NCBI GenBank assembly: GCA_964486465.1
Contig: CAZAMI010000001.1
Coordinates: 1 to 41,382 of the forward strand
Length of the DNA stretch: 41,382 nt
Source of the DNA: an uncultured Desulfurococcaceae archaeon
GTDB taxonomy: Archaea > Thermoproteota > Thermoprotei_A > Sulfolobales > NBVN01
Direction: 5' to 3'
Shown: one piece after another, positions 34,934 to 41,306 of the stretch
Numbering within the stretch: the stretch's first letter is position 1
Layout of the letters: every line of letters begins with the position of its first letter
Made by a program: the position numbers and the translations under genes
The notes under the pieces: model-generated
The model's database searches: none
What the model was told of the DNA's origin: nothing
What the model saw: the letters and a program-made list of their open reading frames with translations, nothing else

Positions 34934-35200
34934 TTATCTCCTAGCAGTCAGCTTTCTAGCCTCTCTCTCAGTTTCTCTTAAGATAACTATATCACCTATC
35001 CTTACTGGCCCTTTTATATTACGTGTTATTATCCTCCCTTTATCCCTACCTTCAAGAACTCTAACTCTGACCTGCGTTATCTCGCCAGTGACTCCCGTCC
35101 TACCAACTATCTGAATAACTTCAGCTGGAAATCCAAAATCCTCAATGACGTTTACTGGTTTATCTGCTACATCAACCCTCCTTTCCCCTTCCCTACTCAT
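34934..35200 (-). CDS. rps28e: 30S ribosomal protein S28e (eS28)
   Basis: [61 protein letters not shown] start at ATG 35200-35198. The track's 167-aa version runs antisense into rpl24e. Confidence 0.85.
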
Positions 35201-35294
35201 CAACACACACCGATGTAGTATGTAGTATTTGGGATTTATAAGGATTGTTAAAACTTTTAAGTGTCTTCCACTCAAAATCTGTGGTGTGGATTTA

Positions 35295-35492
35295 ATGCCA
35301 AGAATAAGGAAATGCTCATTCTGTGGTGCGGACATACCACCAGGTACTGGCATGATGTACGTTAAGAATGATGGTACGATACTCTGGTTCTGCTCTAGTA
35401 AATGTTTTAAGAGTTTTAAAATGGGTAGAGATCCCAAGAGATTACCCTGGACTACATACTATCTCGGGAAGGGTAGGAGGTCGAAGGCATAG
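35295..35492 (+). CDS. rpl24e: 50S ribosomal protein L24e (eL24)
   Basis: [39 protein letters not shown] zinc ribbon. ATG at 35295. Confidence 0.85.
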
Positions 35493-37938: not shown

Positions 37939-39483
37939 TTGGTATTCAAGCAGCCATTTTACTCGTTATCTGGTGTTGTTGCTTCTGAACATCCTCTAGC
38001 TTCATTATTGGGATCACAAATACTTGAGAGGGGTAATGCTATTGATGCAGCTGTTGTAACTAGCTTAACATTGGCTATGACATTACCTCATCTTGGTGGT
38101 TTAGGCGGTGATTTCTTTGCCTTAATACTGGATCCTAACGGTGAGGTTCACTTCGTAGATGGTAGTGGTTACGCGCCATCAAGACTCACATTAGATTTAA
38201 TGAATACCTTAGGTTATAGATCCATGCCAGCACATGGGCCTCTATCGATTAATGTGCCAGGCATGATTGATGGTTTAAGAGTTATGTGGGAAAAATGGGG
38301 TGTAATAGAGTGGAAGGATCTAGTTAAGAGAGTAGTTGAGGTTATTAGTAAAGGCATTATAGTGACACATAGTTTTGCACAAAGTCTTAGAGCTCTATAT
38401 AACGAGCTATCCCTAGATCCAGGATCTAAAAATACATACTATAGTAATGGTTTACCAAAGGAAGGTGAAGTAATAGTATTTAAAGGATTAATCAGTGCTT
38501 TAGAGCTAGTAAGTGATGATCCTAGAAGTTTCTATGAAGGAGAAATAGCGGAGTGCATAGTTAATTACGTTAAAGATAGAGGAGGTGTAATGGAGCTTAA
38601 TGATCTAAAGCAATACAAAGCATATATAGGCAAAGGACTAAGTATTGAGTACAGAAATAAAATAGTGTATGAAATGCCCCCAAGTACGCAAGGTATAACG
38701 ACATTACATATGTTAAAGCTTCTAGAGGAGTATGATCTTAAATCACTAAGTCTTAATTCACCTAAGAGGATTGAGCTCTTGCTTAAGATGGCTAAGATAG
38801 CTTATAAGATCAGGGATTCGTATGTAACCGATCCTAGACATATGAACATTGACGTAAGATACTTACTAAGTGAAAAGTTTATAGAGAGAATAAAGCATGT
38901 AGTAAGAAGTAACGATTTAGATGAGCCAGAAATTAGTTTGAGCGGATGTGATACAACATTCTTTGCCATAGCTGATAGTGAAGGTTGGGTAGTAGCAGGT
39001 ATTCAGAGTCTTTTCTATCCGTTTGGTTCATATATTACTGAGCCAAGATTTAACATAACGTTGAATTCACGAGCATCATCATTTAGTCTCAATAAAAACC
39101 ATGTAAATAAACTTGAGCCGCTAAAGAAGACCCTACATACCTTATCTGCAGTAATAATAGATGATAATGGCAGAATACTATCTTTAGGGTTATCGGGAGG
39201 TCATTTCAGACCATTACTTCATGCACAATTAATTACCAACATAATAGATTACGGATTAAGCGTTCAGGAGGCGATAGAACATCCTAGGTTTATATGGCAT
39301 TTATGGTCTAAACATGTAGATTATGAGGAAGGGCTTAATGTAGAGGGTATTGAAGGTTATGTGTTTTCGAGGAAGCCTTATCCATCAAGAATGGGTGTCG
39401 CTGCAGCAGTTGAGATCAGAGGTAAAGTAAAAGCTGGTTATACGGATATACGTGGTGATGGAATGGCTATAGGAACTCCCTAA
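37939..39483 (+). CDS. ggt: Gamma-glutamyltransferase family protein
   Basis: GVVASEHPLASLLGSQILERGNAIDAAV, and GCDTTFFAIAD carrying the autoprocessing nucleophile Thr. TTG start; there is no in-frame ATG upstream. Confidence 0.8.
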   Translation: MVFKQPFYSLSGVVASEHPLASLLGSQILERGNAIDAAVVTSLTLAMTLPHLGGLGGDFFALILDPNGEVHFVDGSGYAPSRLTLDLMNTLGYRSMPAHGPLSINVPGMIDGLRVMWEKWGVIEWKDLVKRVVEVISKGIIVTHSFAQSLRALYNELSLDPGSKNTYYSNGLPKEGEVIVFKGLISALELVSDDPRSFYEGEIAECIVNYVKDRGGVMELNDLKQYKAYIGKGLSIEYRNKIVYEMPPSTQGITTLHMLKLLEEYDLKSLSLNSPKRIELLLKMAKIAYKIRDSYVTDPRHMNIDVRYLLSEKFIERIKHVVRSNDLDEPEISLSGCDTTFFAIADSEGWVVAGIQSLFYPFGSYITEPRFNITLNSRASSFSLNKNHVNKLEPLKKTLHTLSAVIIDDNGRILSLGLSGGHFRPLLHAQLITNIIDYGLSVQEAIEHPRFIWHLWSKHVDYEEGLNVEGIEGYVFSRKPYPSRMGVAAAVEIRGKVKAGYTDIRGDGMAIGTP

Positions 39484-40451
39484 AAGAAGTCTACTTGATA
39501 CCTAAGTACAGCTACAATTCCTCCGAATGTCTTCTTTATCCACGTATATTCAGGTACTCTGTCATCTATAACGTAAACATCAGCATTACTTCTCTTAGCC
39601 TTCTCTCTAAATTCTTCAATTCTTGGATGATCATGTGTTATTATTAAATACTTAATAGCCCCTATGTTTAGTGCTTTCTCTATTACCTTTTCACCATACA
39701 ATGCTAAACCATCATCCTTAGCTAGATGGTAATTGAACTCCTCAAAGGCCTTACGTAGTCTAATGTAGGCGTGATCCTTAATCATCTTTTCAGCTTTAAG
39801 TACTAACTCCCTAAGCCCAGGTTCGCCCTGATCACTCACATCGATAAGCGATGGTAGTATCAACTTTTGAAGTCTATAATCAAGTAGTTTAGAGTTAAAG
39901 AAATCAACCTTAGTGAATCCTGGACCACCAATAATTATACCTTTAAGCTTACCTTGCTCTAGTAGCGGTATGAAGTAATTGTTAGCTTTCTCAGCAACTC
40001 TCTTAAAGAACTCCTTGGTTAATTCCTCAATTATCCTCTCAAAACGCCTCTGAGACCATCCACCCTTACTATGTTTACCTGGTACATATCCCTCTATCTC
40101 ATCTAATACCTGCAATGCCGTACCCTTCAATAATCCTATAGTTGCTTCATCCCTCTCTATTATTATTAAACCGTAAACATCCTTCTCCTCAATCATTTCT
40201 TCAAGGAACTCTGTATGGAACCACTTGTCAGTCCTATAGAAGTATATCTTTATTGGTTCAGGTGGTGAGAATACTAGGGCTATGAACTCTCCAGTCTCGT
40301 CATTTTCACCAGCAAATATTACTAAACCATTCTCAGGTACCTTAGGTATTTTAAGTAATCTATCAATTGCTGCTGAAAGCGCTGCTTGAACTTTAGATCT
40401 TGTTCTCTTTAACTTAATATTCTCAGTTATTGCTAGCTCCTGTCTTAACAT
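39480..40451 (-). CDS. aRF1-like peptide chain release factor homologue with substituted GGQ/NIKS/YxCxxxF motifs. The homologous frame continues upstream to 40604 without an ATG, GTG or TTG.
   Basis: The in-frame upstream extension reads ...YLISKDELRRIIKELKKWKAHATTLLSLYIPPGRPIADVIN, followed by MLRQELAITENIKLKRTR. This is the typical aRF1 domain 1. The middle domain reads VPGKHSKGGWSQRRFERIIEE, and the C-domain is eRF1_3-like. Confidence 0.75.
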   Translation of the reverse strand: MLRQELAITENIKLKRTRSKVQAALSAAIDRLLKIPKVPENGLVIFAGENDETGEFIALVFSPPEPIKIYFYRTDKWFHTEFLEEMIEEKDVYGLIIIERDEATIGLLKGTALQVLDEIEGYVPGKHSKGGWSQRRFERIIEELTKEFFKRVAEKANNYFIPLLEQGKLKGIIIGGPGFTKVDFFNSKLLDYRLQKLILPSLIDVSDQGEPGLRELVLKAEKMIKDHAYIRLRKAFEEFNYHLAKDDGLALYGEKVIEKALNIGAIKYLIITHDHPRIEEFREKAKRSNADVYVIDDRVPEYTWIKKTFGGIVAVLRYQVDFF

Positions 40452-40626
40452 GTTAATAACATCGGCTATAGGCCTACCTGGTGGTATGTAGAGACTAAGT
40501 AGTGTTGTTGCGTGAGCTTTCCACTTCTTTAGCTCTTTAATTATCCTTCTAAGCTCGTCCTTAGATATTAAATACGCATTATCCCTGCTAAATACTATCC
40601 ACCCTCAACATTAAGATTTTACTAGG

Positions 40627-40705: not shown

Positions 40706-40882
40706 GTGAAGAAAAGGGTAGTCGTATATGTAGGTTATGACGATGAAAGCGCTAAAATTCTTAGGAAGGTCATGAACTTTAGAAACTTATTTGATGATAT
40801 TACAATAGTTTATGTACCTGAGAGTAAGAAGGAAGTATTGAGCTTACTCTCAATACCCTCTGTAGTTATAGAGGAGGTTTAG
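40706..40882 (+). CDS. Small thioredoxin-fold-like hypothetical protein without CxxC (58 aa, below the track cutoff)
   Basis: Manual translation from GTG 40706 gives VKKRVVVYVGYDDESAKILRKVMNFRNLFDDITIVYVPESKKEVLSLLSIPSVVIEEV. The pattern is glutaredoxin-like (beta-alpha-beta ... IPSVVI) with YDDE where CxxC would sit. A TTTTAAAG element lies about 40 nt upstream. Confidence 0.3.
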   Translation: MKKRVVVYVGYDDESAKILRKVMNFRNLFDDITIVYVPESKKEVLSLLSIPSVVIEEV

Positions 40883-40913: not shown

Positions 40914-41306
40914 TCAAGTAGTACCAAGTCTTAGTCCGAGTTTTCTATAAGGGCATTCATTCCAATGTTGAGAACACAAATTAACTTCATACCTTGTTAA
41001 ATATCTATTAAGTACTTTACAAGCAGCAACATATACATTTTCCTCATATTTTTCCACGATGAAGAACTCGCATAAGCACTTAGGTGGTTTATTTAGAGAA
41101 TGTATTAGCAATATGGGCTTACCGTACTTACCACTAAACTCTTTAGGTTCCCTACCTGTTGGCTCAACATAGTACCTACACTTACCATAAACCTCTTTAT
41201 TACTGGAGCATATGGAAGGTATGACTGGATCTCTAGATGGTTCATTAAGTAATGGTGATGTACATATACCTTCCTTATACCAAGGACAGGGCAATAATTT
41301 CCCCAA
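40914..41306 (-). CDS. Cysteine-rich hypothetical protein (11 Cys in 130 aa)
   Basis: PCPWYKEGIC...CSSNKEVYGKC...CLCEFF...AACK...LCSQHWNECPYRK. TTG start. A TTATAAG element lies about 25-30 nt upstream on the minus strand. Confidence 0.5.
   Translation of the reverse strand: MGKLLPCPWYKEGICTSPLLNEPSRDPVIPSICSSNKEVYGKCRYYVEPTGREPKEFSGKYGKPILLIHSLNKPPKCLCEFFIVEKYEENVYVAACKVLNRYLTRYEVNLCSQHWNECPYRKLGLRLGTT

Follow-up and report, generated by a model that had tools for sequence, protein, structure and literature searches.

Here we describe the gene for the archaeal class-I release factor aRF1 in a stretch of 41,382 nucleotides (nt) of contig CAZAMI010000001.1 from an uncultured Desulfurococcaceae archaeon, called the window in the following. 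The preferred reading, to which we assign a probability of roughly 0.6, is that this gene encodes the housekeeping aRF1 of its lineage, that its translation would start by a +1 frameshift out of a very short upstream open reading frame (ORF0), and that its product, in which the catalytic motif GGQ is replaced by GGW, would have been retained as a release factor. A wider proposition is more tentative, and we give its two parts together just short of an even chance: that a family-level clade of hyperthermophiles, Zestosphaera tikiterensis among them, ends all of its translation with Trp in place of Gln, and that the aRF1 of many Sulfolobales and Desulfurococcales would be feedback-controlled by a prfB-like +1 frameshift 3-7 codons into translation. 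The two elements of the gene needed first are:

39480-40589, minus strand: main aRF1 frame, shifted by +1 against ORF0, with 369 sense codons before its TAG stop
40056-40064, minus strand: GGW (GGT GGA TGG), with TGG at 40058-40056, in the place of the catalytic GGQ

The aRF1 reading frame opens after TGA 40607-40605 and closes at TAG 39482-39480. All three Pfam domains of the family (eRF1_1, eRF1_2 and eRF1_3) were found above cut-off in the window protein, the NCBIfam model TIGR03676 (aRF1) scored 435.2 bits against a cut-off of 234.7, and the aRF1 of Aeropyrum pernix (3AGK) aligned with it end to end (446.9 bits, E 5e-133, residues 11-372). The pelota model TIGR00111 stayed at 82.2 bits, under its cut-off of 177.65, and the NIKL and GG-SQRR loops are retained; apart from GGQ, every other aRF1 signature is kept. 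Judged by these matches, the gene is an aRF1 orthologue by descent and an atypical variant by motif. A preliminary description made from the letters of this DNA had proposed a three-domain aRF1/eRF1 architecture and an intact frame; the former was borne out by the Pfam, TIGR03676 and 3AGK matches, and the frame proved intact across the clade of GGW sequences.

Aligned to the aRF1 of A. pernix (3AGK) and of Sulfolobus acidocaldarius (8HKU), the Trp falls column for column on the Gln of GGQ, which confirms the correspondence that the preliminary description had marked for checking. Every one of the 60 sequences in one clade has W, and all 138 sequences outside it have Q. GGW is carried by 38 of the 120 nearest protein clusters and by 23 of 80 species-representative genome loci, these being the best 80 of 176. 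In neighbour-joining trees, built with 24 genomic copies and then with 60 tips, the GGW sequences formed a single monophyletic clade in which no GGQ sequence was nested; the 60 tips combine genomic copies and protein clusters, and the tip sets of the two trees overlap in part. GGQ is found in the nearest sisters, first P0013/L085 and then the loci L020, L024, L025 and L036. Members of the clade are metagenome-assembled genomes (MAGs) named Desulfurococcaceae or "Sulfolobales archaeon", and Zestosphaera, including Z. tikiterensis.

No alignment column other than the Q/W position sets the GGW clade cleanly apart. Around it, the loop PGKHxxGGWSQRR is invariant except for one position (G in 57 and S in 3 of the 60 sequences), with GG, W and SQRR present in 60 of 60. 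Compensating columns accompanying the change from Q to W were not found inside aRF1; a change from H to S at position -4 is enriched with W, and S occurs there in GGQ lineages too. The ratio of nonsynonymous to synonymous substitution rates (dN/dS) was 0.02-0.12 in seven pairs from the GGW clade and 0.05 in the one GGQ pair with a defined value, and the branch lengths of GGW sequences were unremarkable, with no acceleration of rate. Trp is encoded by TGG in all 24 genomic copies, while Gln elsewhere is encoded by CAG (32) or CAA (25); the route from CAG to TGG must go via TAG or CGG. Taken as they stand, these sequences suggest that Trp took the place of the GGQ Gln once in this clade and that the Trp was then kept under purifying selection. 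As a separate observation, the singleton aRF1 cluster P0050 carries GGK among near-identical GGQ sequences, which is probably a sequencing error.

An unusual catalytic motif together with an apparent lack of a start codon could also be the mark of a decaying or redundant copy, or of a sequencing or assembly artefact. Against this, the frame is intact, dN/dS is about 0.02-0.12, and both W and the shift site described below recur in independent assemblies and across a deep clade, the shift site also in finished genomes of cultured species. The TGG codon is accompanied by the same start region in a 96%-identical ENA contig (L081) and, for an 87% relative, in three assemblies made independently (NCBI MAG, JGI and Logan; L082-84). 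In a pseudogene, moreover, the apparent frame break at the start would not be expected to be conserved, as it is here. We regard decay or artefact as next to negligible. The preliminary description was therefore right that GGW is neither a sequencing error, TGG being present in four further independent contigs of two lineages, nor a sign of an old pseudogene, and its question whether orthologues conserve the motif under selection is answered by the fixation of W and the low dN/dS. Its suggestion of an incipient decay of a redundant copy does not agree with this fixation, with the dN/dS values or with the position of the gene, which is the same beside aIF5B and NDK as in GGQ sisters.

Past aRF1, the window continues with a gamma-glutamyltranspeptidase gene, followed by aIF5B, NDK, S28e, L7Ae and GluRS. 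aIF5B lies downstream of aRF1 in most of the GGW loci whose flanks include it, and it comes directly after aRF1, at an identical offset, in the GGQ sister loci L020, L024, L025, L036 and L085. Because W is fixed throughout the clade, dN/dS is low and the aIF5B-NDK neighbourhood is shared, the gene is better described as a housekeeping orthologue than as a decaying or spare copy; by position it is, as far as the flanks tell, the orthologue of the canonical crenarchaeal aRF1. The GGW clade has no paralogue clade, its sole sister P0013 being a single sequence that is itself syntenic. The open reading frames of the window end with TAA (16), TGA (13) and TAG (13), and since all three stop codons are in use, an omnipotent release factor is needed.

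The preliminary description had also called for a search for a second, canonical aRF1. With patterns for crenarchaeal-type aRF1, no second aRF1 locus was seen for the 23 GGW assemblies among the best 80 of 176 loci, and the GGW gene is likely to be single copy. Among the same 80 loci, only JALTZF01, a MAG of the Pyrodictiaceae, had two (L045 and L056); these are different GGQ aRF1s with ordinary in-frame starts and represent either a true paralogue pair or a mixed bin.

A role other than peptide release has nevertheless to be weighed. The GGW protein could be a neofunctionalised, non-hydrolysing A-site factor that binds stop codons while release is carried out by another, undetected protein. 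The invariance of GGQ outside the clade speaks for it, as does yeast, where changes in the motif are poorly tolerated and cells expressing eRF1 Q182E were not reproducibly propagated even alongside wild-type eRF1 (PMC12440015); because of this intolerance, an active GGW is not a given. The copy number bears on the question in the same direction, since it rests on one scan of the best 80 of 176 loci with patterns specific to crenarchaeal-type aRF1, and a divergent second release factor may exist. Both the yeast result and this limit count against our own interpretation. On the other side stand the orthologous position of the gene beside aIF5B-NDK, the lack of a paralogue clade and of a second locus in the scan, the invariant GG and SQRR on either side of W, an evolutionary rate that is not accelerated, and a stop-codon-sensing recoding site kept at the gene's own start. 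Pelota, a known non-hydrolysing derivative of the eRF1 fold, has lost the whole GGQ motif. Altogether, a non-hydrolysing factor, which the preliminary description had offered as an alternative to decay, appears rather unlikely and is disfavoured by synteny, by the invariant PGKHxxGG-SQRR and by the recoding site.

For bacterial release factors, much of the catalysis is assigned to the conformation of the two glycines and to the main-chain amide of the third residue. A study by Seit-Nebi from 2000 is reported to have found release activity not wholly abolished in vitro after substitution of the Gln, and nucleophile-partitioning studies of bacterial RF1 reportedly indicate the same. An active GGW factor is plausible, and we infer from conservation that the protein still acts as a release factor at the peptidyl-transferase centre, where hydrolysis would depend on the Gly-Gly backbone geometry and the main-chain amide instead of the Gln side chain.

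Two further motifs, both concerned with stop-codon recognition, had been listed together with GGW as substituted signatures:

40410-40421, minus strand: NIKL, the crenarchaeal form of NIKS, present in 119 of the 120 nearest homologues and in A. pernix 3AGK
40218-40238, minus strand: YRTDKWF, the crenarchaeal form of YxCxxxF, with YRTDKxF in 120 of the 120 nearest homologues

The sole exception for NIKL, P0073 (297 amino acids, aa), is truncated and begins past the motif. At the position of the YxCxxxF type, the aRF1 of A. pernix reads YYRTDKRF, and most of the 120 nearest homologues combine NIKL and YxTxxxF with GGQ. As both are the normal crenarchaeal form and are found alongside GGQ, they are uninformative on a loss of function. 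Of the three substitutions reported in the preliminary description, the readings and coordinates are right and GGW is unusual; NIKL and YxTxxxF are ordinary for the lineage.

The second unusual property of the gene concerns its start. The first in-frame ATG, GTG or TTG is ATG 40451, 51 codons into the frame, just as the preliminary description had stated in finding no canonical start among the first 51 codons. The elements upstream of it, all on the minus strand, are:

40588-40611, minus strand: ORF0, reading ATG(40611) TTG(40608) AGG GTG(40602) GAT AGT ATT(40593-40591) TAG(40590-40588)
40587-40593, minus strand: proposed +1 shift site A_UUU_AGC, where ORF0 reads AUU UAG C
40597-40607, minus strand: purine-rich element TGAGGGTGGAT resembling a Shine-Dalgarno (SD) sequence, ending 3 nt before the shift codon
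40627-40633, minus strand: TATA-box-like TTAAAAA, 24 nt upstream of GTG 40602

Candidate starts of ORF0 are GTG 40602, whose position is conserved across the clade, TTG 40608 and ATG 40611, which give an ORF0 of 4-7 codons. The SD-like TGAGGGTGGAT overlaps its 5' end. Related loci carry TTAAAAG, TTTTTAAG or TTATAAGC elements at a distance similar to that of TTAAAAA in the window, and the position of this putative TATA-like element suggests an aRF1 mRNA that is leaderless or has a very short leader. Its spacing, in suggesting such a message, would make GTG 40602 the likeliest ORF0 start. The product predicted with a GTG-started ORF0 of 4 codons has 373 aa, the length of the A. pernix aRF1; it begins with MDSI and continues past the shift site as SRDNAYLISKDEL. 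An Rfam scan of the whole window was empty and no tRNAs were found, so the start region is not explained by a known RNA element.

ORF callers would place the start at ATG 40451 (Met52), the only canonical in-frame start, giving a 323-aa protein without the beginning of the N domain, and gene callers give the same 323-aa product for the relatives P0002 and P0008. Yet the 45 codons upstream of it are under strong purifying selection (dN 0.019, dS 0.95 between the window and L081) and align to residues 10-50 of the A. pernix aRF1, including the invariant LLSLYIPPGRP, a part of the solved N domain that lies within the start-less stretch of the window lineage. A start at Met52 is in our view very improbable.

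When the 5' regions of 81 sequences were aligned on the NIKL anchor, a conserved motif appeared where the aRF1 frame opens, (GA)GG(G/T)G-ATG-nGT-NTT-T(AG/GA/AA)-C/T. An in-frame TTT followed by AG, GA or AA at the shift position, i.e. NTT with an out-of-frame stop, is present in 74 of the 81; this was the criterion by which the 74 were selected, and the invariance of these letters in the sequence logo is by construction. An ORF0 start lies within 7 codons upstream in 68 of the 81 (at 3-5 codons in all 68), mostly as ATG at 3 codons (42) or GTG at 4 codons (19). In 51 of the 81, the aRF1 frame contains no ATG, GTG or TTG between the upstream stop and the shift site. The shift codons of the 68 are ATT (42), TTT (16), CTT (8) and GTT (2), and each of these NTT codons could re-pair in the +1 frame, where every one of the 74 sites offers TTT. 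ORF0 ends with TAG in 61, TGA in 5 and TAA in 2 of these sequences, followed by C (52) or T (13), which we assume by analogy to be a weak stop context in archaea. As a background, about one combination of start and shift motif was found for every 11 kb across 1.8 Mb of flanking sequence.

Upstream of the shift codon, a block G[AG]G[GT]G-ATG is visible at -12 to -5 in the logo of the 74 loci, and the sister locus L085 has an SD-like AGGTGATCC 2 nt before ATT. These elements match the SD of Sulfolobus, for which GGUGA is the consensus and UGAGGUGA is fully complementary to the anti-SD (PMC11627041). Directly past the shift site, codons vary synonymously (Ser TCT/TCG/AGT, Leu TTA/CTT/CTG, Arg AGA/AGG) and differences are rarer at codon position 2; the +1 frame right after the shift site is under selection at the amino-acid level.

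The finished genome of Saccharolobus islandicus (CP001731, L086) reads GGG ATG AGT CTT TGA C, which contains the shift heptamer of Escherichia coli prfB, and that of Thermogladius (CP196893, L089) reads ATG GGT TTT TAG C; CTT TGA C or CTT TAG C was found in Metallosphaera yellowstonensis, Acidianus copahuensis and a Stygiolobus strain. Since it is present in finished genomes, the recoding site is not a MAG artefact. The annotated aRF1 of S. islandicus (MKALIKELKKW), Thermogladius and other finished genomes begins at an internal codon, and public annotations leave out the conserved N-terminal residues between the shift site and this internal start. Lineages that have no such site possess an ordinary in-frame ATG in the corresponding place and serve as an internal control; they are Hyperthermus butylicus and Pyrodictiaceae (L045, L056 and L087 between them), L030, L034, L042 and Fervidicoccaceae (L053).

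We propose the following course of events, which would account for the missing start that the preliminary description had left without an explanation. The lack of an in-frame start would be due to translation beginning on the very short ORF0, most likely at GTG 40602 and alternatively at TTG 40608 or ATG 40611. On reaching UAG 40590-40588, the ribosome would have AUU in its P site and UAG in its A site; the peptidyl-tRNA-Ile could then slip by +1 from AUU (40593-40591) to UUU, after which AGC (40589-40587) would be decoded, followed by the 369-codon aRF1 frame, to yield a product of about 373 aa. As in bacterial prfB, there is an SD-like element, here 3 nt upstream, and a C after the stop. Because the UAG of ORF0 would be read by aRF1 itself, the arrangement would result in negative autoregulation: abundant aRF1 would end ORF0, and scarce aRF1 would leave the A site empty long enough for the slip. 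To judge from the conserved architecture, this looks like autoregulation of the prfB type. Transcriptional slippage, as another way to change the frame, was rejected, the run of T being only 3-5 nt long.

Translation might also do without any frameshift if it started at a non-canonical codon of the aRF1 frame after the TGA, either ATA 40598 or GTA 40595, placed there by the SD-like element, which lies 1-7 nt upstream of these codons. Non-AUG initiation does exist in prokaryotes. The codon in question is, however, not conserved among relatives (GTA, GTT, GTC, ATA, GCA, GGA, GAA, CTA, CCA and others), and conservation is seen instead in the TTT and in the ATG or GTG and the stop that are out of frame. 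Furthermore, the upstream in-frame stop is often the TGA inside ATGA, which in many loci leaves only two codons before the TTT. This makes a non-canonical start quite unlikely, and a frameshift out of ORF0 the preferred explanation.

Several observations weigh against the frameshift and have to be set beside it. The SD-like element overlaps the presumed ORF0 start, so the place and manner of ORF0 initiation are uncertain. No conserved 3' stimulatory RNA structure was found in the 70 nt downstream at 22 diverse loci, the z-scores of the minimum free energy being around 0; this agrees with prfB, yet it takes away what could have been an independent signal. In L022 and L023, relatives of Zestosphaera sp., ATT TAG T is kept about 160 nt upstream of NIKL, and there is no ATG, GTG or TTG in either the ORF0 or the aRF1 frame, the GTG of GGTGA lying in the third frame. 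The loci L016-18 have a GTG in the aRF1 frame 3 codons before TTT with ATT TAG still there; an indel seems to have let them bypass the frameshift. Lastly, L008 from the GGW clade reads ATG AAG TAT TAG C, with the same geometry and a Tyr codon that cannot re-pair in +1.

The closest known counterpart is bacterial prfB, which encodes RF2 (AGG GGG UAU CUU UGA C in E. coli). Like the aRF1 genes described here, it has a short ORF0 ending in a stop that is read by the encoded factor, a P-site NUU able to re-pair with UUU in the +1 frame, a main frame in +1, C as the letter after the stop, an SD-like element 2-4 nt ahead of the shift codon and no 3' structure; in the case of aRF1 the SD-like element may act as a stimulator or in initiation. 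CUU UGA C is even identical in S. islandicus and three other Sulfolobaceae loci (Metallosphaera, Stygiolobus and Ca. Aramenus). In contrast to RF2, aRF1 is an unrelated class-I release factor of the archaeo-eukaryotic type, and the archaeal ORF0 has 3-7 codons as compared with 25 in E. coli. The archaeal stop is mostly UAG, with TGA and TAA also used, as suits an omnipotent factor; its ORF0 start and SD-like element overlap, on an mRNA that is probably leaderless or has a very short leader, and the archaeal frameshift is a prediction from sequence. In the eRF1-like genes R726 of Mimivirus and mg280 of Megavirus, a stop is likewise bypassed by a frameshift, which has been read as autoregulation, as we propose here (Jeudy et al. 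2012, PMC3521657). In the viral genes a second stop is read through in addition to the frameshift, and both events lie inside the gene, whereas archaeal aRF1 would have a single event at codons 3-7. According to the same authors, archaeal and eukaryotic homologues have no such recoding (PMC3521657).

With regard to GGW, the aRF1 structures of A. pernix (3AGK, 3VMF; also 373 aa) and of S. acidocaldarius on the 50S subunit (8HKU) have the same three domains as the window protein and carry GGQ, where the window protein and its clade carry GGW. Engineered mutants of eRF1 and of bacterial RF1/RF2 have the same Gln replaced, but they are laboratory-made and mostly unfit in vivo, while GGW is natural, clade-wide and under purifying selection. 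Pelota/Dom34 shares the eRF1 fold and the lack of the catalytic Gln; it is without the whole GGQ loop and the NIKS-type motif, and the window protein retains both loops, with W for Q.

Within the limits of the literature searched, both the GGW clade and the aRF1 frameshift appear to be undescribed: nothing relevant was found on a frameshift in archaeal aRF1, and no paper contained GGQ, GGW and "release factor" together. Release-factor autoregulation was treated as bacterial in a review of frameshifting from 2016 (PMC5009743), and the only programmed frameshift given in a review of archaeal recoding from 2021 is that of fucA1, in the -1 direction (PMC8211752). If the proposal is correct, Archaea would gain with aRF1 their first +1 programmed frameshift and their first instance of release-factor autoregulation, a type of control that would thereby reach beyond Bacteria and giant viruses. 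Beside fucA1, it would be the second programmed frameshift of the domain, and one of a different mechanism. The archaeal arrangement would either have converged on the bacterial one or share its ancestry, with CUU UGA C being identical in Sulfolobaceae, and the annotated N-terminus of aRF1 would have to be corrected in many genomes, that of S. islandicus for example.

Textbooks present GGQ as the motif common to all class-I release factors, whatever the domain of life. From a natural GGW, under selection in a protein that is apparently the sole release factor of an entire clade, one could learn for what purpose the Gln side chain is really needed; if the clade ends all of its translation with this protein, this side chain and its N5-methylation would be dispensable in vivo, and GGW would offer a natural system for studying hydrolysis in the peptidyl-transferase centre at high temperature. 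Both claims are directly testable in Saccharolobus/Sulfolobus, for which genetic tools exist, and the shift site is also present in genomes named Metallosphaera, Acidianus and Thermogladius.

Some observations on the surroundings of the gene may be added. The gamma-glutamyltranspeptidase gene (37939-39483, plus strand; Pfam E 4e-103) stands between aRF1 and aIF5B, and its stop overlaps that of aRF1 by 4 nt; a homologue had 0 hits in the fetched flanks of 80 related loci, and the gene looks like a lineage-specific insertion among translation genes whose order is otherwise conserved. On the other side of aRF1, a Cys-rich ORF of 130 aa (40914-41306, minus strand) without a Pfam match is found about 5 kb or less from aRF1 in 44 of 80 related loci, and a 58-aa ORF (40706-40882, plus strand), likewise without a Pfam match, is a conserved neighbour in 12 related loci. 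The 167-aa ORF at 34934-35437 (minus strand) matches S28e only at residues 103-163, its 5' end probably being over-called; relatives have separate small S28e and L24e genes in its place.

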